In this document: in pieces, positions 2,905 through 22,385 of the stretch
Layout: every line of letters begins with the position of its first letter
How positions within the stretch are numbered: position 1 is the stretch's first letter
Assembly (NCBI GenBank): GCA_964605525.1
Contig: CAZSCV010000005.1
Location: forward strand, 39,256-103,255
Length of the DNA: 64,000 nt
Source of the DNA: an uncultured Bdellovibrionales bacterium
GTDB lineage: Bacteria > Patescibacteriota > Minisyncoccia > Moranbacterales > UBA9337
Direction: 5' to 3'
Translations under genes and position numbers: made by a program
The notes under the pieces: model-generated
Seen by the model: the letters and a program-made list of their open reading frames with translations, nothing else
Databases searched by the model: none
What the model was told of the DNA's origin: nothing

Positions 2905-3091
2905 AAGAGATAAAAGATTTTAAAAAAATGATTGAGAATTTGAAATTAAAATTAATCTCCTTGTTCGAAGCTGTGCATAGACGGATTTTTAGGTATGAGA
3001 TGAGTGATGAATAAGGTCTTTTAAAAAGTATTTCTTGACATCCCGTTTCTGATAGTGTACTATTATTGTATACTATTAGAAATAAGTATTT

Positions 3092-3748: not shown

Positions 3749-4575
3749 AAAAAGTAATCCTGGAGTTAAAAAATATTATTGATGAAAACTCTGACAGAAC
3801 TGATTCGTATAAACGAAATTTATTAAAAAATTATTTACAGGTATATGCTTTAAATTTTATTTATTCTGAAAAAAAATACAGTAATTTAATATTTTATGGA
3901 GGCTCAGTTCTTTCTCAGTGTTATAACTTACCGCGTCTTTCTGAGGACTTAGATTTTGTGGATCTGACTGGGCGCATTAACCTAAGCGATTTGGCGAATG
4001 ATTTAAAAAACTACCTTAAAAAAGAGTTGGGCTTGCCATTAGAAATTAAAATACAGAAATTTAGAATATATTTGAAAGTTCCAATTCTTAAGCAACTGGA
4101 GGTATCTACTGACTCAGAATCTGACTGGCTTTATTTAAAGGTGGAAATTTTTAATGGGACAGGCTTTTGCAAAAAGCATAAAACAGAAATTAGGCCACTT
4201 TTTAAATTTAATCAATCGGTGTTAATTAAAACTTTTGATTTGCCAACATTAATGGCAACAAAAATTGGGGCTATTTTACATCGAAAATGGGAAAAAATCA
4301 GCAAATCCGGAGAAGTTCTGCTGAGCGTCAAGGGAAGGGATTACTTTGATTTAATGTGGTATTTGCAAAAAGACATCTCTCCGAATTTAGATTGCATAAA
4401 GGAGGTTGAGGATGTTGCGGAGTTAAAGAACGAGCTTTTAGATATTGTGAATAAAATTGATAAACAAAGCATTATTCTCGATTTGGAAAATTTTATCGCA
4501 GATAGGGAATTTGTTAAAAATCTTGGAAAAAATATAAAAGATATATTAAAAATAGAAATTAATAAATTGCACTAA
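3745..4575 (+). CDS. AbiEii/AbiGii-family nucleotidyltransferase toxin (DUF1814)
   Basis: Family motif IFYGGSVLSQCY...RLSEDLDFV (GGTAL...R.SEDlDf). Confidence 0.7.
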   Translation: MKKVILELKNIIDENSDRTDSYKRNLLKNYLQVYALNFIYSEKKYSNLIFYGGSVLSQCYNLPRLSEDLDFVDLTGRINLSDLANDLKNYLKKELGLPLEIKIQKFRIYLKVPILKQLEVSTDSESDWLYLKVEIFNGTGFCKKHKTEIRPLFKFNQSVLIKTFDLPTLMATKIGAILHRKWEKISKSGEVLLSVKGRDYFDLMWYLQKDISPNLDCIKEVEDVAELKNELLDIVNKIDKQSIILDLENFIADREFVKNLGKNIKDILKIEINKLH

Positions 4576-4623
4576 GGATTATACCAAAACAATGCGGTCG
4601 TCGAGTTTTTGGCATAATCATTA

Positions 4624-4812
4624 ATTACAGGAAAGTGGGGTGAGGCTTGAAAAGCATTGGTTTATCGTCTAACAATCGTCTATAATCTATGAGGGAGATA
4701 AAAAAATAAAAATAACCCCGAGGTTAAAATGGGTGGTATAATGTCTGTGGAAAGAATGATCTGGATCTGGTTTCCATTTTACCCCGAACAAGCGGAGTGG
4801 ATTTTGAAACTG
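4624..4812 (+). repeat. composite of repeat modules B', A', C', D' in the spacer upstream of the glycan locus
   Basis: B' at 4624-4649, A' at 4664-4686 (with a TATAAT), C' at 4732-4760 (tggtataat extended -10), D' at 4782-4809. The order C-D is permuted relative to the D-E-C arrangement at 1661-1833. Confidence 0.7.
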
Positions 4813-4881
4813 TCGAAATATTTGAAAGGGTTTGAGATGTGAAAAATAATTCATTTAAAAATTTTTTAACAAAAAATAAAA

Positions 4882-5688
4882 ATGGAGATAAAGATTGAAG
4901 AAATCAAAGAAATCGCCAAAAAATCCGGGGAAAAAGTTTTGGAATATTATTACAAAGATTATAATATTTCATACAAAGATAACGGTGGCAAAAAATCACC
5001 TTTGACTGAGGCGGATTTGGCGTCGGATAAAATAATCATGGAAGGACTTGAAAAATACAATTTTCCGATTTTGAGCGAAGAAACGGAAGATGATTTATCA
5101 AGGATTCAAAGTGAATATGTTTGGATTGTTGATCCGTTGGACGGTACGAGTGATTTTATGGAAAAGACCGGTGAATTTTCGATTCTTATCGGGTTAGTGA
5201 AAAATGGTGATCCGGTTTTGGGTATGGTTTTCGAACCGGTAAAAAATACTTTTTATTGGGCGGAAAAAGGGAAGGGCGCTTTTATGGAAAAAAATGGAAA
5301 AATCAAAAAAATAAATGTTTCCAATAAGGATAATTTTCAAGATATGACTATTTTGCTCTCGCGAAATCATCTTTTGGAAAGCGATAAAAAACTTTGTGAA
5401 AATTTGAAAATAGGAAAACAAACAAAAAGAGGGTCGACTTCCAAAATGTGCGTGATTGCGCGTGGGGATGCGGAAATCTATGTAAATACCAGTGATAAAA
5501 CGGGGGAGTGGGATACTTGCGCGCCACAAGTAGTCTTGACGGAAGCGGGAGGTAAGATTGTGGATATGCGGGGAAAAGAACTAATGTATAACAAAAAAAA
5601 CCCGAAGAATCTTAATGGATTCGTGGTGTCAAATGGTAAAAATTATGCTAGAATAGTTGAGGAATTGAAAGGGGTAATAAAAAGTTAA
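4882..5688 (+). CDS. inositol monophosphatase family / 3'(2'),5'-bisphosphate nucleotidase (CysQ-like)
   Basis: IMPase motif WIVDPLDGTSDF. The gene is adjacent to the APS kinase. Confidence 0.65.
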   Translation: MEIKIEEIKEIAKKSGEKVLEYYYKDYNISYKDNGGKKSPLTEADLASDKIIMEGLEKYNFPILSEETEDDLSRIQSEYVWIVDPLDGTSDFMEKTGEFSILIGLVKNGDPVLGMVFEPVKNTFYWAEKGKGAFMEKNGKIKKINVSNKDNFQDMTILLSRNHLLESDKKLCENLKIGKQTKRGSTSKMCVIARGDAEIYVNTSDKTGEWDTCAPQVVLTEAGGKIVDMRGKELMYNKKNPKNLNGFVVSNGKNYARIVEELKGVIKS

Positions 5689-5702
5689 ATTCAATAAGAA
5701 TA

Positions 5703-6227
5703 ATGAAAAAAGGAATAGTGATTTGGCTTACGGGCTTGCCGTGCAGTGGGAAAACAACATTATCCAAGGAAATCGAAAAATATTTTCAGCAAAAGAATTT
5801 GCCCATTCAGAGATTGGATGGCGATGTGGTGCGTGAAACTATCAGCAAGGATTTGGGATTTTCGAAAAATGATCGAGATGTTAATATCGAGAGAATTTCG
5901 TATGTGGCGCAGATGCTTTCGGATAATGGTGTAAATGTTGTTTCCGCTTTTGTTGCTCCATATCAGAAAATGAGAAATTTTACACGTAGTCTTTGTGAAA
6001 ATTTCGTAGAAGTTTATGTTAAATGCGATATTGAAGAATGCAAGAGAAGAGATGTAAAAGGAATGTATGCCAAAGCCGCCAAGGGACAAATTAAAGATTT
6101 CACAGGAGTCGACGATCCTTATGAAACTCCAAATAATCCAGAGGTTGCTGTAAATACGGAATACGAAGAAATAAAAGAAAGTACAGAAAAAATTATTCGT
6201 TGTGTTTTAAATAAGCATACTTTATGA
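5703..6227 (+). CDS. cysC: adenylyl-sulfate (APS) kinase
   Basis: P-loop GLPCSGKTTL, an RLDGDVVR motif, and length/architecture typical of CysC. Confidence 0.85.
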   Translation: MKKGIVIWLTGLPCSGKTTLSKEIEKYFQQKNLPIQRLDGDVVRETISKDLGFSKNDRDVNIERISYVAQMLSDNGVNVVSAFVAPYQKMRNFTRSLCENFVEVYVKCDIEECKRRDVKGMYAKAAKGQIKDFTGVDDPYETPNNPEVAVNTEYEEIKESTEKIIRCVLNKHTL

Positions 6228-7039
6228 TAAAAATATTTTTTCTAAAAAAATATTATTTTATTGTTTATCATCTTACAAGAATGTTTTTTTTGGAAAATAT
6301 GGTGATAAATAAAGAAAACAAGCACAAAAGAATATATCATTATCATATTAGAAAAACCGGAGGAACAAGCTTGAATAAGATGTTTTTTTTATTAAATAAC
6401 ACAAAAGATGATTCAATGAATATATATAGTGAGATTTGCAATTCCATGAATCACAGAGCGGTTGATAGCATGAGTAGAATTTATGTTGGATATAATCCTT
6501 ATTTTATTGAAAATGAAGATTATTTTTATGGATTTTCTCATATTCCAATGCATAAAATAAAAATTCCTACAGAAATATTTACCTTTACAATAATAAGGGA
6601 TCCTGTCGAAAGAATATTGTCCCATTATAAAATGTTATTAGACTATGAAGCAAATAAAAATAAACATCCTTCGTTTAATACTGAAAAAAAATGGATAGGG
6701 GATAGCTTCGGTGATTTTATTAGTAGAGTGCCGTCTAGACATTTAATGAGGCAGTTGTATATGTTTTCCAATAGCTTTAATGTGGAAGAAGCAGTAGAGA
6801 ATATTTCAAAATGTTCCCATGTGATATTTTTTGAGGATTTTAATAAAGGAGTGAAATCGTTATTTGATAAACTAGAATTGGATATGCCGGAAATTATTCA
6901 TGAAAAGAAAAGTGCTGTATGTTTTGAGCCAAAATACGATGAATTGTTGATGTTAAGAAAACTGATAGAAAAAGAATTGGTTTTCTACGAAAGGGTAAAA
7001 TATATTTATAGGCATAGTGATTTATTGAATAATTTATGA
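6224..7039 (+). CDS. carbohydrate sulfotransferase (Sulfotransfer_2-like)
   Basis: 5'-PSB-like YHIRKTGGTSL and 3'-PB-like IIRDPVERILSHY motifs. ATGA overlap with cysC. Confidence 0.55.
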   Translation: MIKIFFLKKYYFIVYHLTRMFFLENMVINKENKHKRIYHYHIRKTGGTSLNKMFFLLNNTKDDSMNIYSEICNSMNHRAVDSMSRIYVGYNPYFIENEDYFYGFSHIPMHKIKIPTEIFTFTIIRDPVERILSHYKMLLDYEANKNKHPSFNTEKKWIGDSFGDFISRVPSRHLMRQLYMFSNSFNVEEAVENISKCSHVIFFEDFNKGVKSLFDKLELDMPEIIHEKKSAVCFEPKYDELLMLRKLIEKELVFYERVKYIYRHSDLLNNL

Positions 7040-7049
7040 ATACAAAAAA

Positions 7050-7679
7050 ATGATATTAAAAATTTTATTGCGAGAGATAAGATATGTATTTTCAGTAACG
7101 AAGAGGTTTTTTATAAGTCCAAAATTTCCAAAAAATAAAGACGGAAAGATCTTGATTCATATTGGATGCGGAGATATAAAAGACTCTTGTTTCGTGAATA
7201 TTGATGCGCGACCCATGGAGCATATTCATTATGTAACAAAAAATGTTGATAATTTAAGCTTCCTTCCATCTAAAAGTGTTGATTTATTGTATATGTGTCA
7301 TGTTATGGAGCATTTTGATAGAGCAAAATCTGTCATGGTTACAAAAGAATGCTTTAGGGTTCTCAAACATGGCGGAATATTGAGAATTTCCGTTCCAGAC
7401 TTCGATCGAATAGTTGATATTTATCTTGATAACAATAGAAACATGAAGGCTATTATAGCCCCGTTATTTGGAGGACAAGATTATGAGTTTAATTACCATT
7501 ACAATATGTTCAACAGAGAAAGTCTTGGTGAATTATTTAAACAATGCGGTTTTCGTATTACAAGAGAATGGAAGCCTGATGATGTGCAGTATCATAAATT
7601 TGATGATTGGTCGCGAAGAAAATTTAGCGTCGATGATAAAAAGTATATCATAAGTCTGAATTTGGAGGCTGTTAAATAA
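7050..7679 (+). CDS. class I SAM-dependent methyltransferase
   Basis: Motif I-like ILIHIGCGD and HVMEHF. Confidence 0.6.
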   Translation: MILKILLREIRYVFSVTKRFFISPKFPKNKDGKILIHIGCGDIKDSCFVNIDARPMEHIHYVTKNVDNLSFLPSKSVDLLYMCHVMEHFDRAKSVMVTKECFRVLKHGGILRISVPDFDRIVDIYLDNNRNMKAIIAPLFGGQDYEFNYHYNMFNRESLGELFKQCGFRITREWKPDDVQYHKFDDWSRRKFSVDDKKYIISLNLEAVK

Positions 7680-7697
7680 TCCATTTTATTTTTTTAA

Positions 7698-9005
7698 ATG
7701 AATTTATATAGAAGATTGTTAATTTTTTTAGAAAATATTCATGTGCTCATTTTTAAGCGCTCATCAGGAAGAAAGATGCGAGAATTTGCTATAAATCTTT
7801 CTTGGTCATTGGGTGGATTTTTTTTTAGTTCCTTTATATTATTTTTTCTTAATGTTTCAGCTGGTAGAATTTTAGGACCCGTCGGATATGGAAAATATAA
7901 TCTGATATTGGTTTTGGCAAATATTGTTTCTGTGGTTATCCTCCTTGGATTGAATACGACAACTACAAAATTTTTAGCAGAAAGTAAAAATGAATTGGAA
8001 AAGAAAAGAATTCTTTCAAATTCAATCATTATTATATCTATTACTAGTTTGATTTCTTTATGCTTATTTCTGCTGATGTTGTTTTTGGATTTATTTAATG
8101 GATTAAATTTAAATCCGAATCTGTTTTTTACAGCTATAATCTTTGCGATTTTGTTAAGCTATAAATCTTTATTTGACGGAATAGCCAAAGGATTAAATTT
8201 ATTTGAATATCAAACGAAAATTAGAATTGCGGAGAGTTTGATTGTAGTTATAATTTTTTTACTATTTTTTTCCCAACTAAAAATTGGCAATTTTTTCTAT
8301 TATGCCATATCCCTAATTGGAGGAATGGTGTTTTTTTGCCTATTTTTTTATTTTAAAATTAAAAGTTATGTAATAGGGTGGAGCATGCAACATTTTAAGA
8401 GGATATTTAAATATACAAGAGACACAATTGTTATTACTATTATTCTTATGATTGTAAATTATTTAGATAGGATTTTTGTAGGAAGATTTATTGGATTAAC
8501 AGATCTAGGAATATATAGTGCCTATCTAACTTCGTCATCAGTTTTCGTAGGTCAAATAATGATAGTTTTAAATAATGTTTTTTTTCCGGCAGTAATTTTA
8601 TTAGAAGATAAAGATGCAGTAAAAAAACAAGTAGATAAATTATTTATATTTTTTTCAATTCCAGTATTTTTTTTATTTTCCATTGTTTCATACGGAGCAT
8701 TGTATCTTTTTGGAAATAATTTTGAGAAGAATATTCTTATTATTTTTGCCTTTTCTTTTGCTTCCGTTCTTCAATTGTTTGGAAGCTTATATAAAAGTTT
8801 AGTATCTTCACATGAATCAAAATATGGAAAATATAGGAAACTTTCTTTTACTCTGCCGATTTTTTTTATAGTCTTTTATGGGATATTGGTTGTTTTTGAT
8901 TTAAAAAATTTAAATTACGCGACATTTGCCTATGTGGCGTTTGTAAGTTATAATTTTACTATTATTCGATTAAGTTGTAATTATGAAAAGAAAAAAAACA
9001 TTTAA
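7698..9005 (+). CDS. polysaccharide biosynthesis protein / Wzx-like oligosaccharide flippase
   Basis: 435 aa with about 12 predicted TM helices, in a glycan locus context. Confidence 0.5.
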   Translation: MNLYRRLLIFLENIHVLIFKRSSGRKMREFAINLSWSLGGFFFSSFILFFLNVSAGRILGPVGYGKYNLILVLANIVSVVILLGLNTTTTKFLAESKNELEKKRILSNSIIIISITSLISLCLFLLMLFLDLFNGLNLNPNLFFTAIIFAILLSYKSLFDGIAKGLNLFEYQTKIRIAESLIVVIIFLLFFSQLKIGNFFYYAISLIGGMVFFCLFFYFKIKSYVIGWSMQHFKRIFKYTRDTIVITIILMIVNYLDRIFVGRFIGLTDLGIYSAYLTSSSVFVGQIMIVLNNVFFPAVILLEDKDAVKKQVDKLFIFFSIPVFFLFSIVSYGALYLFGNNFEKNILIIFAFSFASVLQLFGSLYKSLVSSHESKYGKYRKLSFTLPIFFIVFYGILVVFDLKNLNYATFAYVAFVSYNFTIIRLSCNYEKKKNI

Positions 9006-9738
9006 AAAAAGAATTTTTAATGCGCTAAAAACTGTCGGACTTTGGGGTATTATAAAACTTATTTTTGTAAACATAAAATTGTATTATCTTAGAATAAGGA
9101 AAACTCCATCCTATTCGCAACTGTTCGAGGATTATTTTCTGGATTCATTGATGAAACATAGTAGAAATGGATTCTATGTCGATATTGGCGCTAATGATCC
9201 CTTTAATTTGAATAATACGGCATTTTTTTATCAAAAAGGATGGCATGGTATTAATATTGAACCGGATATGCAAAAATTTAATTTATTAAAAGAAAAAAGA
9301 CCTGACGATATTAATATAAACATGGGCGTAGGCAAGAATGCCGGAATACTTAAGTTCTACAGATTTAAAGATAGCTCCTTATGTACATTTTCAGAGGATG
9401 AGGCGAAAAAAAGAGTGCAGCAGGGCGTTGAATTGATTGGTGAAACTGAAGTCTTCGTAGATACTCTCGCGAATATTTTGGCAAAGAATATTCCATCGGA
9501 GAAGAGAATAGACTTTATTTCAATTGATGTCGAAGGTCTTAATCGAGATGTTCTGTATTCAAATGATTGGAAAAAATATAGACCAAGATATGTTTGCATA
9601 GAAGTTGCTGAGTATTGCAAAGATGTTTTAACTAAAGATATGGAGATTGTTAAATTTTTAGAAAAGCAGAAATACAAAGAAGTATTTTTTAATGGAATTA
9701 ATTCTATTTTTAAAGATATAAAAAAAAATGAAAAATAA
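8983..9738 (+). CDS. FkbM-family methyltransferase
   Basis: FYVDIGANDPFN and FISIDVEGLNRDVL motifs. Confidence 0.7.
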   Translation: MKRKKTFKKRIFNALKTVGLWGIIKLIFVNIKLYYLRIRKTPSYSQLFEDYFLDSLMKHSRNGFYVDIGANDPFNLNNTAFFYQKGWHGINIEPDMQKFNLLKEKRPDDININMGVGKNAGILKFYRFKDSSLCTFSEDEAKKRVQQGVELIGETEVFVDTLANILAKNIPSEKRIDFISIDVEGLNRDVLYSNDWKKYRPRYVCIEVAEYCKDVLTKDMEIVKFLEKQKYKEVFFNGINSIFKDIKKNEK

Positions 9739-10687
9739 GGACGAGATAGAGTTTAAGCAGGAATCCATTAATAATTGCCCTGTTTGCCTTTCGAGTGAGA
9801 TCAGGTTTCACTTAAGTAAGTTTGATGATAGATATGGACAAGCCGATATTTTTCATTTATATCGTTGTTTGGAGTGCGATGCAGTTTTTTTGAAAAATAG
9901 AATAAAAGAAGCTGAGCATCCTCCGTTGTACGAAAAATATTACATTTTTTTATCTAAAATTAATAAAAAGACTTCTACAAAGGAAGCATTTTTTTGGTTA
10001 CAAAAAATGATTATGAAGGTAGCAGGCGAGTTTTTTTTAATTGGGAAGATGAATTATGAAGCGAAAGTTCTTGAAATAGGTCCTGGCGATGTTTCTCAAT
10101 TATCAATGCATAGCATAAAAAAGAATAAGTTAAAATGGATTGGACTGGAGGTCAATGAAAAATGCGCGAAAAATATCAAAGGAAAGGGGTTAGATGTTTA
10201 TCGAGAGTCGTTCGGAGACTTTATTTCGAGAGGAATGAAATTTGATTCAATAATTTTGTCGATGTCAATAGAACATTTGCATGACCCAATCCTTTTTTTT
10301 GGTAATTGTAAAAAAGTTTTACATGAAGATGGTGTTATATTTTTAACTACCGCTAATCTGGATTCCAGATATCGAGAAAAATACAATAAAAGATGGATCA
10401 ATTGGCACGTCCCATATCACCAAGTGCTTTTTTCGAAAAAATCTATAAAAATGATTTGTGAAAATAATGGATTCTACATAAAAAAATATCACACATCTAC
10501 TCCAACTAGCTGGTTTTTATTGCAAAAGAAATTTAGTATACCTACGAGAGGAAAAATAAATACTGATTGTGCGATGAGTTTTTCATTTGTGGATTACTTG
10601 CTATTTTCAGTGTTCCTCAGATTTTATGAATTTTTTTCCAGGAATAGTGGGGATTGCATGTATTGTGAAATAAAATTAAGAAAGTAA
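9728..10687 (+). CDS. SAM-dependent methyltransferase with an N-terminal Cys4 zinc ribbon
   Basis: CPVC...CLEC pair and a VLEIGPGD motif I. Confidence 0.55.
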   Translation: MKNKDEIEFKQESINNCPVCLSSEIRFHLSKFDDRYGQADIFHLYRCLECDAVFLKNRIKEAEHPPLYEKYYIFLSKINKKTSTKEAFFWLQKMIMKVAGEFFLIGKMNYEAKVLEIGPGDVSQLSMHSIKKNKLKWIGLEVNEKCAKNIKGKGLDVYRESFGDFISRGMKFDSIILSMSIEHLHDPILFFGNCKKVLHEDGVIFLTTANLDSRYREKYNKRWINWHVPYHQVLFSKKSIKMICENNGFYIKKYHTSTPTSWFLLQKKFSIPTRGKINTDCAMSFSFVDYLLFSVFLRFYEFFSRNSGDCMYCEIKLRK

Positions 10688-10698
10688 ATAAAAAAAGT

Positions 10699-12891
10699 AT
10701 GTTTTTTTTGGGTGTGATTTTATTTTTTATTATACCGTCAAATATAGCGTTGCTTTTTTTTGCACATTTTTGTTTAGCAAAGAACTATAGGATAATTTTT
10801 ATAACTTCATATGGAGTAGCTCCCTTCTTAAGTCCAGTGCTTTTCTATTACCTGATTTGGTTTTTTCCGGAAAGGTCAGATTTGTTTTATTTGTTATGGC
10901 TGTCAATTTTTTGGATTATAGCATTGGTGATATCGTTTATGAAATGGAGAAAGGTCGCTTTGTTGTACAGGATGATTTATAGAGATTTCATCAGATTCTT
11001 TGAAATTTTTATAAGAATGAAAATGATTTCCTATTTAGCGGTGTTAAGTATGTTTTTATTCTTATATTTTATTCAATCTTTTTATTATCCGATTTTAGGG
11101 AATGACAATGCCCTTTATATTGGGCAAAGTATTGCATTGCGGGAATATAAAAACTTAGAATGGGAGAAAAAAACATTTGTCATGGTTGATGGAAGCGAAT
11201 ATAGATACAACTCATCAATTAGACCAGGAATTCCATTTTTTGTTTCTATCTTTATAATGAGCGGAGTGGATTACAGGAAAATGTTTCAGTTTATTTCTAC
11301 ATATTATTACGTTCTTCTTTTTGGAATATTTATGCTTTTTGTATATAAAGTATCCATAGAACTAAAAAAAAATATCGGGCGGTCTTTTTTTTGGGCCAGT
11401 TCATTCTTTTTGTTTTCTTGGGTGCTTACCAGAGCATTTATTTTTAATGCAAAGGAGATTGTAGTTTATTTTTTTGCACTTCTTTCTTTGTATTTAATTT
11501 ATGTTTTAATTAAGATGAAAGAGCGAAATATTTTTTTTGAATTATTAACAGGAATAGCAATAGGCGTGGGTGTTTTTGTTAATTTACACGGAGTGATAAT
11601 TGGCGGTATTGTTATTATGTTGTTATTTGTATTATCAAAGCTTAATATTAAGGAAAGAATTAAACAATGTGTTTCTATATTTTTATACCATTTTATTTTT
11701 AGTGCTTTTGATTTTGCGAGAATTTTTCGTTTTATATTTATTATTACCATAAAAGGTTTAATCGCAAAGGGTAGTATTTTTTTGAATAAAATATTTAGCG
11801 CTTTTGATTTTAAAAATAGATCTAATATTTTTTCTGATAATACAAACAATATTCCTAGAAATGAAATTAAAGAGGCTGATCATGCAGTACGGGCAGTGAT
11901 AGTGAATAATTCAGGAGGAAATATTAATTCCGGGATTTTGAGGGGTACCACCGGAAAGCACCTTGCGCTTTACGGAATGAAAAATTTATTTGATATATAT
12001 ATAAAGGGAAAATTTCAAATTTTTACAAATATAGGGGTTTTCGGTTTCTACTTTTGGGTTTTTTTGACTATATTAATGCTTAAGATAAGGGAGTTATTAA
12101 GGAGTGACATTACTAAAATTCTTGTATTTTTTATTTTAATTTATTTTTTATTTATACTGGATGTTTTTAACATAAACACTCACCCTGCCGCCATTGTATT
12201 ATGGGGGAGCACGAAATATGCGGCTTTATTGCTCCTTATAAGTATGATTGTGTCAAGCGTGTATATCGAACAATTTTTTGAATTTTTTATTGGTTTTATT
12301 AAAAAAAATGTTAGGAAAGTTATAATTTTTTCTTTCCTGGTCGTTTCTTTAATTATAAGTCTAAATAAATTATTTATATCGCTAGGAGTCAGCTTATTGT
12401 CATTGACAATTTCTTTTTCGAAAGACGAGTATTTTTATAGAGAAAAAGTAGAATATTTTTATTATATTTTAGTATTTTTTATAATTATTTTTTTAGTGGC
12501 TATTTTTTTATCAAAATACAGGGAAAAATTATCTTATAATATTCTCGTGTCTTCTTCATTGATGTTTTTTGTCTTAATGCCGTTTTTTATTACTACGGTA
12601 GGAAAAGTTGATTTATTAAAAACTTTTCATTATTTGAATAGTAGTTTGCAAAATAAGCTGGAGAAGAGTTATTTGAAAGATATATATGATGTGTATTTTT
12701 TTGCAAAAGATAACCTGAAAAAAAATTCCATCATTAGAACTGGATTTTATGACATATATACTTACAATGATTATTTTTCACTGAGAATGAAAAGCGATAA
12801 TGAAGTTCAATATGAGATAAGTGCTGAATGTGGTATAAGTAGTGCTCATATTATATATAACTCGAAAGAGGTTTATTTATGCGAGAAATAA
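10699..12891 (+). CDS. large polytopic membrane protein (730 aa), putative GT-C-type glycosyltransferase/polymerase
   Basis: More than 15 hydrophobic segments, in a glycan locus context. No specific family motif was recognised. Confidence 0.3.
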   Translation: MFFLGVILFFIIPSNIALLFFAHFCLAKNYRIIFITSYGVAPFLSPVLFYYLIWFFPERSDLFYLLWLSIFWIIALVISFMKWRKVALLYRMIYRDFIRFFEIFIRMKMISYLAVLSMFLFLYFIQSFYYPILGNDNALYIGQSIALREYKNLEWEKKTFVMVDGSEYRYNSSIRPGIPFFVSIFIMSGVDYRKMFQFISTYYYVLLFGIFMLFVYKVSIELKKNIGRSFFWASSFFLFSWVLTRAFIFNAKEIVVYFFALLSLYLIYVLIKMKERNIFFELLTGIAIGVGVFVNLHGVIIGGIVIMLLFVLSKLNIKERIKQCVSIFLYHFIFSAFDFARIFRFIFIITIKGLIAKGSIFLNKIFSAFDFKNRSNIFSDNTNNIPRNEIKEADHAVRAVIVNNSGGNINSGILRGTTGKHLALYGMKNLFDIYIKGKFQIFTNIGVFGFYFWVFLTILMLKIRELLRSDITKILVFFILIYFLFILDVFNINTHPAAIVLWGSTKYAALLLLISMIVSSVYIEQFFEFFIGFIKKNVRKVIIFSFLVVSLIISLNKLFISLGVSLLSLTISFSKDEYFYREKVEYFYYILVFFIIIFLVAIFLSKYREKLSYNILVSSSLMFFVLMPFFITTVGKVDLLKTFHYLNSSLQNKLEKSYLKDIYDVYFFAKDNLKKNSIIRTGFYDIYTYNDYFSLRMKSDNEVQYEISAECGISSAHIIYNSKEVYLCEK

Positions 12892-12899
12892 TTTAATTT

Positions 12900-13649
12900 T
12901 TAAGACCGAAATTTGTTTAGCTTGTCTATAATATTTAACAGAAAGATTAGGACGGAACTTTTTAAATATTGCTTGTGAATAAGATTATGCTCGTTGTTAG
13001 ATTTTCCTTTCGTGCTCTGTGAATCAGGATGAATAAAGAAATTACATATAGTTTTATTAAAAAATACCGGAAATACGTTGTTTTTTAAGAGCCGTAACCA
13101 CATCTCATAGTCCATTGAGTTCTTGTATTTTTCATTGAAGTATCCATATTTTTTGAATATTTTTTTCTGAATGAAAACGGATTGATGAGGAATATAATTA
13201 GTTGCTAGCAAAAGCCAGAACTTAGCTTTATGATAAATTTTTCTATGCGGGATTATTCTACTAGCTCCTCTTATCTCATTGATAAATAATGCTTTTCCAT
13301 ATATCCAATAAGGATTTTTGTTTATTAATATAAAGGCGTTGATTTCCTTTAATGTATCCGGACTAAATAAACTATCATCGGAATGCAAGTGAATAATATA
13401 TTTTCCCGACGATTTATTTATTCCAATATTCATAGCATTTCCGATTCCTCGCGGCTTGAATTGAAATAGTTTAACTTTTTCTGGAAATTCTTTTTGATAA
13501 CTTTTTATGATAGAGGTGGTTTTGTCTGATGAAAATCCATCAATGAATATGTGTTCAAAATTTTTGAATGATTGATTTTTTATGGAATCTATGTTTCTCC
13601 GGATATACTTTTCGCTGTTGTATGTGCAAGTAATTATCGAAAATTTCAT
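12900..13649 (-). CDS. glycosyltransferase family 2
   Basis: N-terminus FSIITCTYNSEKYI...FIDGFSSDKT. Confidence 0.8.
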   Translation of the reverse strand: MKFSIITCTYNSEKYIRRNIDSIKNQSFKNFEHIFIDGFSSDKTTSIIKSYQKEFPEKVKLFQFKPRGIGNAMNIGINKSSGKYIIHLHSDDSLFSPDTLKEINAFILINKNPYWIYGKALFINEIRGASRIIPHRKIYHKAKFWLLLATNYIPHQSVFIQKKIFKKYGYFNEKYKNSMDYEMWLRLLKNNVFPVFFNKTICNFFIHPDSQSTKGKSNNEHNLIHKQYLKSSVLIFLLNIIDKLNKFRS

Positions 13650-14770
13650 AATAAAGTGGATTTAATTATATTAGCTGCAGTTTTTGTTTTTTGGATAATT
13701 CCCCACGAATCATTTTTTAAGTGCAAATTATTTTCAAAAACATTTTTTATTGCCTTGGTGATTTCTTTTGAATTAGCAGATTTGATTATGTATCCATTTT
13801 TTCCATCTTCAATAAGATCGGCGCTCGCTCCAGCTTCTTTCGTTGCTATAACGGGTAGATCACAAGCCATAGCTTCATTTATTACCAAGCCCCAAACTTC
13901 CTCGTAAGATGGAAGTATCAGTAAATTGGAAATGGAATAATATTTGTAAAGATCGTCATATTGGATGAAATCAGTAAAAATTATATCTTTTAAATGCATT
14001 TTTTTTATAATTCGTTTCATCTTTTCTTTCTCTCTCCCTCTTCCTATGATTAACAAGGAAACGTCAGGGTCATAAGTATGATAGTCTTTAAAGCCCTCAA
14101 GGAGGTTATAAATTCCTTTTCTTTCAATTAGCTGTCCGTTAAATAATATTATTTTTGAAGTTTTTATTCCTAGTTTATTTGTTATCAATTTTTTTTCTGT
14201 TCGAGTAAGGTTTTTTGTCTTTTCTTTAAAGTAGTCTATGTCAATAGAATTGAAGATTATTTCAATGTTCTTAGGGTTAACTCCGAGCGAAATGATGTAA
14301 TCACGCGCTCTTGTTCCGTAGACTACAAATTTATCCGTATTTTTAAATAAATATTTCACAAGAGGAGAAAATATTGTTCTTCTCCAACTCGGTTCATATT
14401 TAGTACTTCCTGACCAAAGAATGAATTCTTTTTTGTTCTTGCGTGCCCACCAGTTTGCTGCGTAAGCAGCAAAATGATCCCAGCCGAAACATATTATTTT
14501 ATCTGGATTATTATGACTAAGCGCACTCAGTATGTTTGGGTTTATAAAGAAAGTAAAGAGATCTTTTTTTCCAATTCTGATGGCAAAATTTTTTAGAATT
14601 TCATAATCAAATCTGATGTTAAAATCTTTCCAATATCTATTTTTGTCACTTTTGCTCAGGAAAAAAACTTTAAGTGTGCTTTCGTTATTGTGATAATGTT
14701 TATTTAACTCATTGAATAAATGAATTCTTGCTGGGCTTATTATGTTATGTAATACGAGTATTTTCTTCAT
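13646..14770 (-). CDS. glycosyltransferase family 4 (GT-B)
   Basis: C-terminal EX7E-type region SYEEVWGLVINEAMACDLPVIAT. Confidence 0.7.
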   Translation of the reverse strand: MKKILVLHNIISPARIHLFNELNKHYHNNESTLKVFFLSKSDKNRYWKDFNIRFDYEILKNFAIRIGKKDLFTFFINPNILSALSHNNPDKIICFGWDHFAAYAANWWARKNKKEFILWSGSTKYEPSWRRTIFSPLVKYLFKNTDKFVVYGTRARDYIISLGVNPKNIEIIFNSIDIDYFKEKTKNLTRTEKKLITNKLGIKTSKIILFNGQLIERKGIYNLLEGFKDYHTYDPDVSLLIIGRGREKEKMKRIIKKMHLKDIIFTDFIQYDDLYKYYSISNLLILPSYEEVWGLVINEAMACDLPVIATKEAGASADLIEDGKNGYIIKSANSKEITKAIKNVFENNLHLKNDSWGIIQKTKTAANIIKSTLL

Positions 14771-14806
14771 TTTTTTGATGTAATTATGAAAAATGTTTAG
14801 AAGCGG

Positions 14807-15970
14807 TTATTTGTAGATATTTTCTAGCTTGGAACAAACTTTGTCTATGGAAAATTTAATCGCAATCATATTTTTTGAATTTATGGATAGTTTTTTCTTT
14901 AAATCGGAATCATTTAGGATAGTTAATATTTTATCTGAAAATTCAGTTTTATTTTTTAGTTCCAATTCAAAGCCTGCTTTATGTGTTTCAATTTCTGGAA
15001 CATTGCAGTTTTTTGAGATGATCTGGGGGATGCCAATGGCGGCGACCTCCAAAACTGTCATAGGTAGACCTTCGTTTCTGGATGTGAAAATAAAAATATC
15101 ACACGATTTTATCGTTTCGAGTTTTTCTTTTCCGGTTAGTATTCCAGTAAAAACAACGTTGTTTTGCAAATCTAGTTCAATTGCCATTTTTTTTAATTTT
15201 TCTTTTTCTCCTTCATCGGGACCGATAATAAGATAGGTGAATTTTGTTTTGTATTTTAGGGAAGATAGAATTTCTATTGATATATCCACTCCTTTGATAT
15301 ATTGCAATCTTCCGATATATGCGATGATTTTATTTTCTTTCGGAAAATTGTATTTTTTACTTAGATTGATTTTTTTGATGTTTTCAAATTCTTCAAGGTG
15401 GAGACCATTGGGAATGATAATAGTTTTATTCTCAAATTTTTTGTTTATTGAAATTATTTCACTTTTTTCATTTTCCGTCAGGGCAATAATGTTCTTTGAG
15501 TTTTTTAGTATGGTTGTAAAAATATCTAAAAAAATCTTTTTTATGAATTTAAATTTGGCCTCTTGTCGAACCAAGGAAAGAGTGCCGTGAGGTTGAATAA
15601 TGAAGGGAATATTATGTTTTTTGCAAAAATGGGCAGTAATGATGTTTTGTAAAGTAAAAAAATCATGGCAATGAACTACATCAAAATTTCGTATATTATT
15701 TTTAGCCCAAAAATAAAATCCAATTGGTAAGTACCCGTTGCAATTTTTGGCTAGCCAATTACTGATGTTTCTGAAGCGGATAATTTTTATTCCGTTAACA
15801 TCTTCTTGAAGTTTTAAGATTCTATTTTTTTTATCAAGTGTGTCTGTTGTGACCACGGTAACTTTGTTTTTGCGGGCGGTTAATTCTTTGGAAATATCGA
15901 AACAAACTTTAACTGGTCCGCCGAAGCCGTAGGCTGGAATAAAATATGGAATAACTTGAAGTATTTTCAT
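14807..15970 (-). CDS. glycosyltransferase family 4 (GT-B)
   Basis: RNEGLPMTVLEVAAIGIPQI motif. Confidence 0.7.
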   Translation of the reverse strand: MKILQVIPYFIPAYGFGGPVKVCFDISKELTARKNKVTVVTTDTLDKKNRILKLQEDVNGIKIIRFRNISNWLAKNCNGYLPIGFYFWAKNNIRNFDVVHCHDFFTLQNIITAHFCKKHNIPFIIQPHGTLSLVRQEAKFKFIKKIFLDIFTTILKNSKNIIALTENEKSEIISINKKFENKTIIIPNGLHLEEFENIKKINLSKKYNFPKENKIIAYIGRLQYIKGVDISIEILSSLKYKTKFTYLIIGPDEGEKEKLKKMAIELDLQNNVVFTGILTGKEKLETIKSCDIFIFTSRNEGLPMTVLEVAAIGIPQIISKNCNVPEIETHKAGFELELKNKTEFSDKILTILNDSDLKKKLSINSKNMIAIKFSIDKVCSKLENIYK

Positions 15971-17466
15971 TTGGTTTTTATAAACGAGTATTCTTCTTTG
16001 GAAGATGAAATGGCAAAAATTTTATAGTTTGCTTTGTTGAGTTTTTGTATCGCATCTCTTGTTTTTTGGGCAGATATAGAAGAAAAGCGATGATGAAATT
16101 CAATTAATATCTGCTTGATATCAAAGTTATTTTCAATTATGTCATCAATAATTTCATATTCAGAGCCCTCGATATCCATTTTTAGAATGTCAATTTTATT
16201 GTGACCCAATTCTTTCATTATTGTTGTCAGATTTTTTACCTTAACTATTATTGGACTGTTTGCATGGTCTTTGCGTACAATACTGTGTGAAATGTGATTT
16301 GGGTTTTTCGGGGGAAACAGCTCGACAAATCCATTTTGTGCGGATAATCCATAATCAAAATATTGAAAATTATTCGGAAGATGTTGTTTCTTCAACCAAC
16401 TTATTGATTTTGGAGTAGGGTCAAAGGCAAAAACCTTACATCCATATTTTGAAATAATGTCTAAATCAAATGAAATATCCTCTCCTATTCCAAACGAATA
16501 AATAATGCTTTCGCTGTGTATATTTTTAGGGGAAATAGTCCAACCTCCATATTTTTTCGATCCAATAAAATCACCGTGAATGTTTTTTTGAACGAAAAAA
16601 AACACTTCTTTACCTAAAGCAACTTTTGCTAGGTATCTGATTTTCCAAAGAAGTAGTTTTAATTTTTCCACAAAGAAATATTTATTTTTTTTTATCTTAC
16701 TTAAGGCTTCATAGATCGTAGTTATCTTGTAATAATTGAATTTATGCAAGAATAATGATGCTGGATATTTCCCCCCGTATTTTTTAGCTAGCCTCAGTTC
16801 ATCTTGAAATTGTTTTTTGTTGACACTGCCACTTTTGCTGTTTGGATAATATCTGAAATTCGCCAGATAATTATCAATAACTCCGGCTGGATATTTTTGA
16901 CCGATTCTAAGCCAAAATTCATAATCCATACACAGATGCTCATTTTCATCAAAAAAACCCCTCTTGGCGTGAATTTCGCGTTTCCAGAACGTTGCGGGTT
17001 GGGAGATGAAATTTTCTGTCAGGAGTTTTGCATAACTGTATTTTCTAAGAAGAAAGTTTTTGTACCATGTTATGGGCTTCCTTATTTCTTCATCATTCTT
17101 GTTGATAATTTTGCATTTGCCATAGACCCAAAATTTTTCCGGATTTTTCTTGAAAAAATCGGCGACTTTTCGGAGCGCGCTTGGCTTGTAGGTATCATCG
17201 GAATTGAGATAGGCGACAATGTCTCCGGTAGCCATTTTGAGTCCCTTGTTGATGGCATCAGATTGTCCATTGTCTTTTTCGGATTTCCAAATGATGTGGT
17301 CGGAATATTTTTTCAAAATTTCAATTGTTCCATCGGTTGATCCTCCGTCCATAATGATATATTCAAGATTCGGATAATCTTGCTTGAGCACGCTCAAAAT
17401 AGTCCGTTCAATAAATTCGGCTTGATTGTATGATGGGGTAATAATTGAAATTTTAGGATTGTTCAT
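15967..17466 (-). CDS. bifunctional glycosyltransferase family 2 / FkbM-family methyltransferase fusion
   Basis: N-terminal [14 protein letters not shown]...[10 protein letters not shown] (GT2) and C-terminal [11 protein letters not shown]...[16 protein letters not shown] (FkbM). Confidence 0.7.
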
Positions 17467-18388
17467 AATTTTTCAGAAACCATTGGTAGGTATCTTTGAT
17501 TCCTTGATTGAGTTCAATTTTGTGCTTCCAATTGAGACTGTGCAATTTGGAAACATCCAGAAGTTTTCTTGGCGTGCCATCCGGTTTCGATGTGTCATTT
17601 TTTATTTCTCCTTCAAATCCGACTATTCGCTTGACTATTTCGGCTAATTCTCGAATGGAAATATCCTCCCCGGTTCCAATGTTTACGATTTCATTTTCGT
17701 TGTAATTTTCCATTAAAAAAACGCAAGCGTCAGCCAAATCATCAACGTGCAAAAATTCTCTTTTCGGGGAGCCCGTTCCCCAAATCAATACTTCTTTTTG
17801 ATTATTGATTTTCGCTTCGTGAAATTTTCGGAGTAGGGCAGGGAGAACATGAGATGAATTCAAATCAAAATTATCATTCGGTCCGTACAGGTTTGTTGGC
17901 ATTACGGAAATATATTTTGTGCCATATTGTTTGTTATATGACTGGCACATTTTAATTCCGGAGATTTTGGCAACAGCGTAGGCTTCATTTGTTCTTTCCA
18001 GCGGTCCGGTCAAAAGATATTCTTCTTTGATTGGTTGGGGACATTCGCGCGGATAAATGCAAGAGCTTCCGAGAAAAAGAAGTTTTTTGACTTTGTTTAG
18101 ATATGCATTGTGAATAATATTGTTTTGTATTTGCAGATTTTGAAAAATGAAATCGGCGGGATAGGTATCGTTTTCCAATATTCCGCCAACTCTCGCAGCT
18201 GCCAGAAAAACATATTCCGGTTTTTCTGTTTCAAAGAATTTTTTTACTTCCTGCCAGTCGAGCAGATCTAATTCTTTGTGTGTTTTCAAAACGAGATTGT
18301 TAAATCCGTTTGATTTGAGATTGCGAATAATCGCTGAACCGACAAGTCCATTATGCCCCGCGATATATATTTTAGAATTCTTTTCCAT
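17453..18388 (-). CDS. fcl: GDP-L-fucose synthase (GDP-4-keto-6-deoxymannose 3,5-epimerase/4-reductase)
   Basis: N-terminus [19 protein letters not shown]. Adjacent to gmd. Confidence 0.85.
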
Positions 18389-18398
18389 ATGCTTTGTC

Positions 18399-19436
18399 TT
18401 ATGATTCTTTTTTCATATCCGCTTTCATCATTATTTTTACCAACTCTTTGAATTTGGTTTTCGGCTTCCAATTCAATTTCTTTGCCGCCTTTGTCGGATC
18501 TCCCAGAAGTAGATCGACTTCGGTAGGGCGGTAATATCTTGGATCGATTCTGATCATTATTTTTTTTGTATTTTCATCAATTCCAACTTCTTTTTCTTTT
18601 TTTCCTTTCCATTTCAATTTTATTTTGGCGACTTTGCAAGCCTCTTCAATAAATTCTCGCACGCTGTGAGTTTCGCCGGTTGCCAAAACAAAATCATCCG
18701 GAGTTTTTTGTTGGAGCATCAGCCACATCCCTTCCACATAATCTTTTGCATAGCCCCAGTCTCGCTTGGAGTCGATATTTCCCAAATAGAGGCAGTCATC
18801 TTTTCCGGCTAAAATTCTGGCAAGTCCGCGAGTGATTTTTCTAGTCACAAAAGTTTCTCCGCGACGCGGTGATTCGTGATTGAAAAGAATTCCATTGCAC
18901 GCATATAGATCATAACTTTCTCGATAATTTACGGTTATCCAATAAGAATATAGTTTGGCGACTCCATAGGGTGAGCGGGGATAAAATGGAGTAGTTTCTT
19001 TTTGCGGGGTTTCTTGAACAAGTCCGAAAAGTTCACTGGTAGATGCTTGATAGAATTTGGTTTTTATTCCGGATTCTTTGATTGCATCTAAAATTCTCAA
19101 CGTTCCAATACCGGTGACATCGGCGGTATATTTTGGCACATCAAAGCTGACTTTGACATGGCTTTGAGCGGCAAGGTTGTATATCTCATCCGGCTTTATT
19201 TTTTCAATTATGCGGCTAATATTGCTTCCGTCCGACAAATCTCCATAGTGCAAAAACAAACGCACATTGTTCAGGTGCGGATCTTTGTACAAATGATTTA
19301 TTCTTCCTGTGTTGAATGAGCTTGATCGGCGAATTATTCCGTGAACTTCATATCCTTTTTCTAATAATAATTCGGCTAGGTATGATCCGTCTTGTCCCGT
19401 TATTCCCGTTATTAATGCTTTTTTCTTTTTTTTCAT
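18399..19436 (-). CDS. gmd: GDP-mannose 4,6-dehydratase
   Basis: [33 protein letters not shown]. Confidence 0.9.
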
Positions 19437-19469
19437 TATCGCGCAGCGTATTAGATTTTTTACGATTGT

Positions 19470-19817
19470 TTATTGTTTGATCTCAGATTCATTGATAGCT
19501 TTTTTTCTTACGATTTCAGTCATCTGTTGTTCCAGTCTTTCGATAGCGGAGAGCAGTTTGAATATCATTAGGAATATTAAAAGAAATCCGGCAAGTATTA
19601 CGGCGTTTATATTTCCTTCAAGTCCAATTATGCGAGCCATTATATTAGTAAAAGAAGGAAAGAGCGCAATCAGAATCATTCCACCCCAGACAAAAAAACG
19701 AATGGATAGCTTATAAAAATTCTGACCCGTTTTACCTTTGACAAAATTTACAATTCCGGAATAAATCATTGATGAAGAAACTATGATCACGATAATTTGA
19801 TATAGATGTAGAGACAT
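19470..19817 (-). CDS. DUF2304-family small membrane protein (commonly paired with GT2 enzymes)
   Basis: 115 aa with 3 TM segments and a C-terminal charged tail. Family resemblance only. Confidence 0.45.
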   Translation of the reverse strand: MSLHLYQIIVIIVSSSMIYSGIVNFVKGKTGQNFYKLSIRFFVWGGMILIALFPSFTNIMARIIGLEGNINAVILAGFLLIFLMIFKLLSAIERLEQQMTEIVRKKAINESEIKQ

Positions 19818-19910
19818 AATATTTGTAATTTATTTTTTCTAATGTTGATTGTAGCAATTTTTTTTAAATTGAACAACTATATGTCGTAACTTGTTAATTT
19901 AAAAAATAAG

Positions 19911-19950
19911 ATACCCAGCTGTTTTAAGGCTGGGTTTTTTGTAAGTTACT
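19911..19950. terminator. bidirectional rho-independent terminator
   Basis: Hairpin cccagctgttttaaggctggg flanked by an A-run and a T-run. It lies between two minus-strand genes, at the low-GC / higher-GC boundary. Confidence 0.7.
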
Positions 19951-19975
19951 TGTTTTTTGAATGGCAACTAGTGCA

Positions 19976-20335
19976 TTATTCCTTGGTTGCTCGAATAGCA
20001 ACCGGATATGCATTAGTTCCAGGTGTACATCCGGAAACATAAAAATATACCGTAAGTCCTTCTGCTTGTGCAACTTCCATGGCGATGGACATGCGGTCAC
20101 CATTAGTGCTCACTGTTCCATCCAGATTTATTAATTGAATGTCGATGTATGTTGCTGATCCGCAGCCGTCGGGATTGGTTAGGACTGATAATGGTTCCAC
20201 ACGAAAAATATCGTCACTTACGTAATAAGTTTGACCGATTAAAGTCGGTCCGATCCAGCCAGCACCGAAAGTCGTATTTGCTAAAAGTAAAAATGGCAAC
20301 ACAACAAGTAGAAACAGGGGGGTTGTTTTTTTCAT
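19976..20335 (-). CDS. small secreted protein (signal peptide, 2 Cys), function unknown
   Basis: N-terminus MKKTTPLFLLVVLPFLLLANTTFG. 4-nt overlap with the upstream FN3 gene. Higher GC than the genome background. Confidence 0.5.
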   Translation of the reverse strand: MKKTTPLFLLVVLPFLLLANTTFGAGWIGPTLIGQTYYVSDDIFRVEPLSVLTNPDGCGSATYIDIQLINLDGTVSTNGDRMSIAMEVAQAEGLTVYFYVSGCTPGTNAYPVAIRATKE

Positions 20336-20970: not shown

Positions 20971-21222
20971 TTCTCCTCCCTCGCCTCCCTTATTTCAGGA
21001 GACTTTTTATTTTATTGTCAAAACAACTATTTCTTATCCTTATATCACTATTTTGCCGTATTTTGGAAAAAAAGCAAGTTTTTTTGATGTTGAGATTGAC
21101 AAATGAGGTTGAGATAGGGGATAATGGGAAATCATAGAAATATGGTTGTTGGTTGCAGTTGTTTGACAAATGAATAATGGAATAATGATTGATGAATATA
21201 AAATTATATAGGAGGAAGGAAG

Positions 21223-22378: not shown

Positions 22379-22385
22379 TTTAAAA

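Follow-up and report, generated by a model that had tools for sequence, protein, structure and literature searches.

What does a bacterium of the candidate phyla radiation (CPR) make with genes for activated sulfate that sit inside a surface-glycan locus, and from where would it take the adenylyl sulfate (APS) that these genes call for? The question is raised by a 64-kb stretch of DNA, referred to here as the window, from a Parcubacteria/Moranbacteria bacterium. Its glycan locus opens at position 4882 with genes for a CysQ-like phosphatase, the APS kinase CysC and a sulfotransferase (ST), continues with methyltransferases, a Wzx-type flippase, glycosyltransferases and the GDP-L-fucose enzymes Fcl and Gmd, and has no gene for ATP sulfurylase (sat). 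An earlier note on this DNA had proposed a sulfated, O-methylated, fucose-containing surface polymer and had called such a locus unusual for CPR bacteria. Our analysis supports a sulfated-glycan locus and weakens the second part of the claim: such loci recur in Moranbacteria and Parcubacteria genomes, which makes this one less unusual for CPR bacteria than earlier thought. The reading that we favour, and consider fairly probable, is that of a variable, O-antigen-like surface-glycan locus with an acquired or retained, self-contained sulfation module, with sat encoded elsewhere.

By open reading frame (ORF) calling, the two convergent blocks of the locus, 4882-12891 on the plus strand and 12900-19817 on the minus strand, are tightly packed, with gaps of at most 36 nt and six overlaps. 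The locus has a GC content of 0.28-0.30, versus ~0.38-0.45 in the remaining window, which encodes SecA, SecDF, FtsW, MurG/C/B and CysS. The CPR-like host suggested earlier agrees with the protein clusters: SecA groups, at 90% identity or above, with Parcubacteria group bacterium Athens0714_25, and the APS kinase groups with Candidatus Moranbacteria bacterium GW2011_GWE2_35_2-. The same locus is also present on several ENA and Logan contigs. All of the genes named in the note were found, and the expected Pfam and NCBIfam families were matched above threshold (Pfam gathering scores and NCBIfam curated cutoffs throughout), with cysQ as the sole exception.

A sulfotransferase beside its own PAPS genes

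The first three genes of the plus-strand block would recycle, make and use 3'-phosphoadenosine 5'-phosphosulfate (PAPS):

4882-5688, plus strand: CysQ-like 3'(2'),5'-bisphosphate nucleotidase, a phosphatase of 3'-phosphoadenosine 5'-phosphate (PAP); PF00459 (Inositol_P), 182 bits
5703-6227, plus strand: CysC, adenylyl-sulfate (APS) kinase, the PAPS maker; PF01583, 192 bits; TIGR00455, 203.2 bits (cutoff 138.7)
6224-7039, plus strand: PAPS-dependent sulfotransferase, Sulfotransfer_2 family, carbohydrate O-sulfotransferase-like; PF03567, 31.9 bits (cutoff 22)

These genes had been described as translationally coupled, which holds for cysC and the ST gene, joined by a 4-nt ATGA overlap (6224-6227), and does not hold for cysQ and cysC, which lie 14 nt apart. 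It had also been allowed that cysC and cysQ might be generic kinase and phosphatase paralogues. The results do not bear this out. CysC passes TIGR00455, an equivalog-domain threshold that identifies it as a bona fide APS kinase, and its P-loop, GLPCSGKTT, is intact. The CysQ-like protein finds its best NCBIfam match in TIGR01331 (CysQ), at 205.1 bits and 70 bits ahead of HisN, and the linkage of the two genes is conserved. As this score is the best match yet lies under the cutoff of the model, the gene is filed here as CysQ-like. Its product would serve to clear PAP, the by-product of sulfotransfer.

The sulfotransferase assignment was open to a similar doubt, namely that the ORF might match no sulfotransferase profile. 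It matches PF03567 above the gathering score, its family profile finds a heparan sulfate (HS) 2-O-sulfotransferase, and its model has a sulfotransferase fold. The PF03567 match spans residues 33-167 only. The 5'-phosphosulfate-binding loop (5'-PSB), HIRKTGGTS, occupies residues 41-49, and the 3'-phosphate-binding motif (3'-PB), RDPVERILS, residues 125-133. In a family alignment of 44 sequences, residues R43, K44, G47, S105, H106, R125 and P127 show no variation, and conservation of S133 is at least 90%. The family has at least 189 matches, which their sources name 'sulfotransferase family 2 domain-containing protein', and homologues of 40-47% identity occur in Desulfobulbus, Verrucomicrobia, Dadabacteria, Bacteroidota and other metagenome-assembled genomes (MAGs).

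Searched against the PDB, the family profile matches HS 2-O-sulfotransferase (4ndz/3f5f, E = 1.3e-5), with weaker matches to the 6-O and 3-O enzymes. The AlphaFold2 (AF2) model of the protein has a pLDDT of 92.3 and a pTM of 0.88, and all 50 of its best Foldseek matches in the PDB belong to the PAPS-dependent sulfotransferases or their close relatives, with the HS 2-O- and 6-O-sulfotransferases at the top. These enzymes (4ndz, 3f5f, 5t03) are thus the nearest solved structures by both profile and fold, with the same 5'-PSB and 3'-PB motifs; a difference is that the animal enzymes reside in the Golgi lumen as type II membrane proteins and the protein of the window is cytoplasmic. In the profile alignment, His106 falls a few residues from the HGH histidines of HS2ST, which we take to be catalytic, and it is a candidate for the catalytic base. 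By profile and predicted fold, the nearest characterised relatives are enzymes that act on carbohydrates, and the protein probably transfers sulfate from PAPS onto a sugar hydroxyl.

Related loci and the source of APS

Linkage of a cysQ-like gene with cysC, often together with sat, was found in at least 6 CPR loci. The two genes are adjacent or near each other in the window and in the loci that we call L006-L008, L009, L014, L015, L018 and L019, and cysQ is adjacent to or near sat in three. L009 is syntenic with the window, with the gene order cysQ-cysC-ST-methyltransferase (MT)-Wzx-FkbM-MT-GT-C / GT2...GT4-GT2-FkbM, where GT2, GT4 and GT-C denote glycosyltransferase classes, and it likewise has no sat. 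Nucleotide identity between the two is about 71% across the locus, with 59% amino acid identity for the ST and 53% for the GT-C protein. The Moranbacteria loci L006-L008 are arranged differently, as epimerase-cysQ-cysC-sat-Wzx-Sulfotransfer_1/3-698-aa membrane protein-MT-aminotransferase-acetyltransferase-GT4-GT4, and the 698-aa membrane protein of L006 is 35% identical to the GT-C protein of the window.

Comparison with L006 places the breakpoints precisely. The cysQ-cysC block is 93.7% identical in nucleotides to L006 exactly over 4879-6196, with nothing alignable on either side, and the encoded proteins are 95-96% (CysQ) and about 90% (CysC) identical. Similarity ends within the last ~30 nt of cysC, after which L006 continues with sat and the window with the Sulfotransfer_2 gene. 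Across all pairs of loci, dN/dS is 0.16-0.22 for cysQ and 0.11-0.16 for cysC; between the window and L009, both without sat, the values are 0.17 and 0.13, respectively, at a dS of about 0.75. This purifying selection, together with the intact P-loop of CysC, indicates a sulfation module in use.

Further CPR loci, retrieved with cysC, show the same genes in other orders: cysQ-sat-cysC in L014, cysC-cysQ-sat in L018 and cysC-cysQ in L015, while L016 has cysC beside a Sulfotransfer_1-like gene. On the complete Moraniibacteriota chromosome CP175956.1, L019 (7686-12077) reads Wzm-Wzt-cysC-cysQ-weak Sulfotransfer_1-like gene-MT-GTs, and its Wzt has the carbohydrate-binding domain Wzt_C; in this ABC-transporter-type locus, sulfate could be a chain-end cap that is recognised for export. 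Two other loci, L094 and L096, gathered around GT-C homologues, contain Wzx, GT2, GT4, GT2, fcl, gmd, DUF2304 and GT2 and no sulfation genes. Their gmd/fcl/GT2/GT4/GT2 arm is 58-79% identical to that of the window. Because this core is common to loci with and without sulfation genes, the sulfation set is best regarded as an accessory module of a variable locus. These CPR bacteria thus have a conserved fucose-glycan core in common and differ in the modification arm, and the accessory module, cysQ-cysC(-sat)-sulfotransferase, is found in combination with two or more families of sulfotransferase and with two routes of export.

The absence of ATP sulfurylase from the window, already remarked upon in the note, stands: a tblastn search with the Sat of L006 returned only chance matches, with E values of at least 1, and on the same result a remnant of sat in the window was rejected. 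Homologues of Sat occur commonly in CPR MAGs, among them those of Moranbacteria, Falkowbacteria and Parcubacteria. On CP175956.1, the cassette has no adjacent sat, and a Sat gene (P0196) is found at the border of that glycan region, 13.3 kb upstream of cysC. As relatives have sat either in the cassette or 13 kb away, its absence here is best explained by rearrangement of the cassette; a sat that once followed cysC would have been lost when the variable part was exchanged at the breakpoint in the 3' end of cysC. It is likely, in our estimate, that this genome encodes sat at another place. Another protein, Sat P0209, was considered as a candidate from the samples of the window and dropped, its source being a different sample.

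Upstream of the locus, the flank shared with L009 (window 552-4575 versus L009 3444-8467) encodes a Fic protein, a truncated DUF4143 ATPase and an AbiEii-type pair. Over the block 2038-4656, the flank is 96% identical in nucleotides to L009, versus only about 71% in the adjoining glycan locus. This difference points to a mosaic history, in which either a mobile/defence block was shared recently or the glycan genes diverged fast. A direct repeat of ~124 nt (185-307 and 1692-1815) flanks the Fic gene and ends in a GTGATATAAT -10-like box. A second repeat, of 39 nt with a CCCGAACAAGCGGAGTGGATTTTGAAA core (1652-1690 and 4771-4809), has one copy ahead of the DUF4143 gene and the other about 70 nt upstream of cysQ.

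Assembly, methylation and export genes

Downstream of the sulfation genes, the locus consists of the following features:

7050-7679, plus strand: S-adenosylmethionine (SAM)-dependent methyltransferase (Methyltransf_11/23, Pfam); 64% amino acid identity to the ST-adjoining gene in L009
7698-9005, plus strand: Wzx-type flippase (Polysacc_synt, MOP superfamily); PF01943, 85 bits; PF13440, 53 bits
8983-9738, plus strand: FkbM-family methyltransferase; PF05050, 71.5 bits; TIGR01444, 47.7 bits (cutoff 37.7)
9728-10687, plus strand: SAM-dependent methyltransferase (Methyltransf_23); PF13489, 49.9 bits
10699-12891, plus strand: membrane glycosyltransferase of predicted GT-C fold (ArnT/PMT_2-like), 730 aa; no Pfam model
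12900-13649, minus strand: GT2 (GT-A) nucleotide-sugar glycosyltransferase; PF00535, 89.5 bits; 58% identical to L094
13646-14770, minus strand: GT4 glycosyltransferase; PF00534, 126.8 bits; 57-59% identical to the L006/L094 orthologues
14807-15970, minus strand: GT4 glycosyltransferase; PF00534, 118.3 bits; 66% identical to L009
15967-17466, minus strand: GT2-FkbM methyltransferase fusion; PF00535, 116.6 bits (residues 7-165); PF05050, 60.9 bits (residues 338-482)
17453-18388, minus strand: Fcl, GDP-L-fucose synthase; NF047922, 518.1 bits (cutoff 500)
18399-19436, minus strand: Gmd, GDP-mannose 4,6-dehydratase; TIGR01472, 603.6 bits (cutoff 415)
19470-19817, minus strand: DUF2304 small membrane protein; PF10066, 61.4 bits
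19976-23808, no strand assigned: insertion that splits the locus, with two unknown ORFs, a sigma-54 activator AAA+ core and an AbiEi/AbiEii pair (Pfam)
23805-24494, minus strand: PpgS/ArnC/DPMS-like GT2, polyprenyl-phosphate sugar synthase; PF00535, 92.4 bits

The count of four methyltransferase domains made in the note is correct, with domains at 7050-7679, 8983-9738 and 9728-10687 and in the C-terminal half of 15967-17466. In L094 and L096, this last protein has an orthologue (74% identity) that consists of a GT2 domain only. A GDP-fucose pathway is likewise borne out, the Gmd and Fcl equivalogs both scoring above cutoff. The Wzx-type flippase is 61% identical to that of L009 and 31% to that of L006. 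Where the window has the GT4 gene at 13646-14770, L009 carries an unrelated 304-aa gene. The GT2 enzyme at 12900-13649 was tried as a polyprenyl-phosphate sugar synthase and rejected, as it looks like an ordinary GT-A enzyme; in the PDB it matches SpsA, chondroitin synthase and a GT2 'Glycosyl transferase' (5tze/5tz8).

The last gene of the plus-strand block had been called a 730-aa polytopic membrane protein. A membrane protein it is, and the description is incomplete in that the protein has a predicted GT-C glycosyltransferase fold. It has no Pfam or NCBIfam match, and its family profile found no match in the PDB. Its AF2 model (pLDDT 78.9, pTM 0.81) retrieves ArnT (5ezm, E = 1e-5) in Foldseek, followed by STT3, AglB, PglB, AftA and PMT; with this fold, the protein was rejected as a Wzy polymerase. 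The sequence has about 14-16 hydrophobic segments, with an invariant aspartate, D136 (GNDNALY), after the fourth; D136 would lie on the extracytoplasmic side, in the first extracytoplasmic loop. ENA gene calls shorten the protein to 624 aa, and the 730-aa form is the right one, since the first 106 residues hold invariant positions. An exhaustive profile search found 274 representatives of the family in 1.84 billion (1.84e9) sequences, and some distant relatives within the family score against PF13231 (PMT_2), in two cases above cutoff. The gene occurs whether or not a locus has sulfation genes, and its family belongs to the conserved core of CPR Wzx-type glycan loci.

The locus does not end at 19817, as the note had it; it extends to 24494 and includes a PpgS/ArnC-like GT2, an enzyme whose gene is normally found beside that for DUF2304. 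Best NCBIfam match of this enzyme is PpgS, at 155.6 bits (below the 370 cutoff), followed by AglJ and ArnC, and its PDB matches are DPMS (5mlz), ArnC (9hwj) and GtrB (5ekp). It is orthologous to GT2 enzymes in L096 (62%) and L094 (44%); in L094 the DUF2304 gene directly adjoins this orthologue, and in L096 it lies near it. An insertion of ~4 kb separates the two genes in the window and is absent between them in L094. As the PpgS-like GT2 was split off from DUF2304 by this insertion, the functional locus is 4882-24494. By orthology and gene neighbourhood, the PpgS-like GT2 is probably the donor supplier of the GT-C enzyme. In the insertion, GC content is mostly 0.40-0.46 from 20001 to 22500 and drops to about 0.30-0.35 where the AbiE genes lie; the variable arm of the locus has 0.28-0.30. 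Within it, the sigma-54 activator AAA+ core is split over the overlapping ORFs 21223-21789 and 21719-22378 and is probably a broken gene, and the AbiEi/AbiEii toxin-antitoxin pair occupies 22554-23808.

A polyprenyl-phosphate sugar synthase, a small membrane protein and a GT-C enzyme also occur together as PpgS, Rv3632 and Rv3779 (PMC3485146). The window resembles this Mycobacterium tuberculosis set, in which PpgS is Rv3631, and the ArnC/ArnT pair in having a PpgS-like GT2, a small membrane protein and a GT-C protein, here in one locus; its GT-C protein differs in having no detectable sequence similarity to solved GT-Cs. Rv3632 is presumably a member of DUF2304.

From these genes we infer an order of steps. 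Gmd and Fcl would provide GDP-L-fucose, and the cytoplasmic GT2, GT4, GT4 and GT2-FkbM enzymes would assemble a fucose-containing oligosaccharide on a polyprenyl carrier, with the priming transferase encoded elsewhere. The three stand-alone methyltransferases and the fused FkbM domain would methylate this unit, and the Sulfotransfer_2 enzyme would sulfate a sugar hydroxyl at the cytoplasmic face; the methylated and sulfated sugar may be fucose itself. For this reaction CysC would convert APS to PAPS, and the CysQ-like phosphatase would clear inhibitory PAP. Wzx would then flip the finished unit. On the outer side, the GT-C enzyme would draw on the PpgS-like GT2 and DUF2304 to attach a further sugar, derived from a polyprenyl-phosphate donor, or to couple the glycan to an acceptor. 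The note had spoken of a polymer. No Wzy or chain-length regulator is encoded within the locus, nor is a priming transferase, and with these lacking 'glycan' is a safer word than 'polymer'.

A second glycan cluster lies at 29526-40432. It contains two UDP-glucose/GDP-mannose dehydrogenase paralogues (29526-30839, plus strand, and 31141-32418, minus strand), GT4 genes at 33696-34880 and 37994-39181, and a LytR-CpsA-Psr (LCP) ligase at 39209-40432. A 563-aa Wzy_C/O-antigen-ligase-like protein (36339-38030) is part of this second cluster, 12 kb from the glycan locus. Between the clusters are a 313-aa protein that carries a calcium-binding repeat of the bacterial TSP3 type (25055-25996, minus strand) and a 646-aa ORF without a Pfam or NCBIfam match (26204-28144, minus strand), both of which may be surface proteins. 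Further along, SecD (54240-55991) has a PpiC-type peptidyl-prolyl isomerase (Rotamase) domain inserted at residues ~151-236, in addition to its P1 head and membrane domain. Scans for tRNAs and Rfam families found nothing.

Competing readings and known systems

Several results weigh against a sulfated-glycan locus with sat at another place in the genome. The CysQ-like protein falls short of the 228.8-bit cutoff of the CysQ equivalog TIGR01331. The ST superposes on the HS sulfotransferases with a modest TM-score of about 0.48, at 13-17% identity. Neither Wzy nor a priming phosphoglycosyltransferase occurs in 4882-24494, and no Bac_transf or Glycos_transf_4 match was found across the window; a sulfate transporter and a priming phosphoglycosyltransferase were found neither in the 64 kb nor in ~4 kb upstream. 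A scan for promoters and terminators gave counts not above those of shuffled sequence. As to ATP sulfurylase, Pfam scans of the sizeable ORFs of the window yielded no match to PF01747/PF14306 or CysD/N, and fragmentary ENA contigs that extend the sequence by about 4 kb on the upstream side and by about 0.5 kb on the downstream side lack sat. Among the best 120 of 8000 Sat homologues, none lies on a contig as long as that of the window (103,678 bp) or that of L009 (35,319 bp), a weak negative.

The low similarity to the HS enzymes would also suit an ST that acts on a lipid, a small molecule or a protein tyrosine and whose position in a glycan locus is incidental; lipids and Nod factors are acceptors of some bacterial sulfotransferases (PMC8205485). 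We consider this improbable, as the ST gene overlaps cysC and is followed 10 nt downstream by a methyltransferase gene and then by Wzx, an order kept in L009 at about 71% nucleotide identity. Independent CPR loci, moreover, pair cysC/cysQ with differing sulfotransferase families, always in glycan loci, and the nearest structures are those of carbohydrate O-sulfotransferases. The replacement of sat at its expected position could instead mean that the sulfation module is a decaying, non-functional remnant, left behind when sat was lost in a cassette exchange. With dN/dS at 0.11-0.22, all catalytic motifs intact, no frameshifts and the arrangement kept in L009 despite about 29% nucleotide divergence, we hold decay to be very unlikely. 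Still less credible to us is a role for cysQ and cysC in assimilatory sulfate reduction, for cysteine synthesis, in place of sulfation. Both are classical assimilation genes in proteobacteria, but the window and the related cassettes contain no cysH, cysI/J, sir or cysK/E, and cysQ/cysC are always found in glycan loci beside a sulfotransferase.

A different alternative concerns the supply of APS: the genome may have no ATP sulfurylase at all, and the bacterium, as an episymbiont, may take up APS, or sulfate activated in some other form, from its host or environment, which CysC would then convert for sulfation. CPR bacteria depend on their hosts for nucleotides, and both the lack of sat in the window, its upstream flank and the contigs named above and the purifying selection on cysC and cysQ between two loci without sat would fit such scavenging. 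However, close relatives retain sat in the cassette, a complete relative whose cassette lacks it has sat 13 kb away, and the search covered about 68 kb of a genome of roughly 1 Mb. We know of no APS importer, and we think a source outside the cell unlikely. Extended to a sat-less CPR clade that runs a truncated PAPS branch on host-scavenged APS and builds a sulfated, methylated fucose coat, glycosaminoglycan-like, for host attachment or phage evasion, the idea remains unlikely in our view. The reading of a surface-glycan locus with a sulfation module and a distant sat is the one that we retain, and its central claim, a sulfated glycan, appears well supported on genomic grounds.

Sulfotransferase genes are known from other glycan clusters. 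The xss (synechan) cluster of Synechocystis PCC 6803 is a Wzx/Wzy-dependent locus for a sulfated exopolysaccharide (PMC8205485), and the predicted wps-1 cluster of Actinoplanes has a sulfotransferase in a Wzx-type cluster, together with a methyltransferase (PMC13390465). Like both, the window has a sulfotransferase gene within a Wzx-type cluster with GT2/GT4 enzymes, and like wps-1 it has methyltransferase genes; in all of them sulfation is presumed to take place on the lipid-linked unit before flipping. The window differs in having PAPS genes of its own (cysC and the cysQ-like gene, with sat in relatives), and in having a GT-C protein and a PpgS-like GT2 instead of Wzy, a polysaccharide co-polymerase (PCP), an outer-membrane polysaccharide export protein (OPX) and XssQRS regulators. 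Its host, too, is different, a CPR bacterium with a monoderm-type envelope.

In rhizobia, NodPQ is an ATP sulfurylase/APS kinase that works with the sulfotransferase NodH, and NoeI carries out an FkbM-type O-methylation. NoeE sulfates 2-O-methylfucose in the Nod factor of strain NGR234 (PMC5080398). The Nod system resembles the window in tying a dedicated PAPS supply to a carbohydrate sulfotransferase, and GDP-fucose, O-methylation and sulfation of fucose are the chemistry that the window locus suggests. In the Nod system, sulfate goes onto a secreted lipochitooligosaccharide in place of a glycan exported by Wzx; the sulfurylase is part of NodPQ, the Nod cluster has no PAP phosphatase, and the sulfotransferases are presumably of other subfamilies. 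LpsS, the lipopolysaccharide (LPS) sulfotransferase of Sinorhizobium meliloti (PMC12445080), is another enzyme of PAPS-dependent sulfation of a bacterial cell-surface glycan, but it belongs to the Stf0 family, its gene lies apart from those for glycan assembly, and its host is a diderm.

Published accounts still place the sulfated surface glycans of bacteria almost wholly in cyanobacteria (PMC8205485; PMC13390465), with rhizobial LPS and Nod factors as exceptions. A literature search for sulfotransferases or PAPS genes in CPR bacteria, Patescibacteria or Moranbacteria found nothing relevant. The window would thus hold a coherent sulfated-glycan locus in a lineage for which none had been described, and the gene content of its relatives points to a modular locus that recurs in Moranbacteria and Parcubacteria.

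The comparison also brings to light a small family of GT-C glycosyltransferases for which there is no Pfam model, and it lends meaning to the annotations of sat, cysC and cysQ in CPR genomes, as genes of sulfation and not of assimilation. A genome of roughly 1 Mb that has dispensed with most biosynthesis invests three to four genes of a hypervariable surface-glycan locus in the making, use and recycling of PAPS, and related Moranbacteria and Parcubacteria do likewise with other sulfotransferases and export routes. This recurrence suggests that sulfate is a recurrent, selectable decoration of the CPR cell surface. If that is true, surface sulfation would bear on how these episymbionts adhere to their hosts or escape phages.

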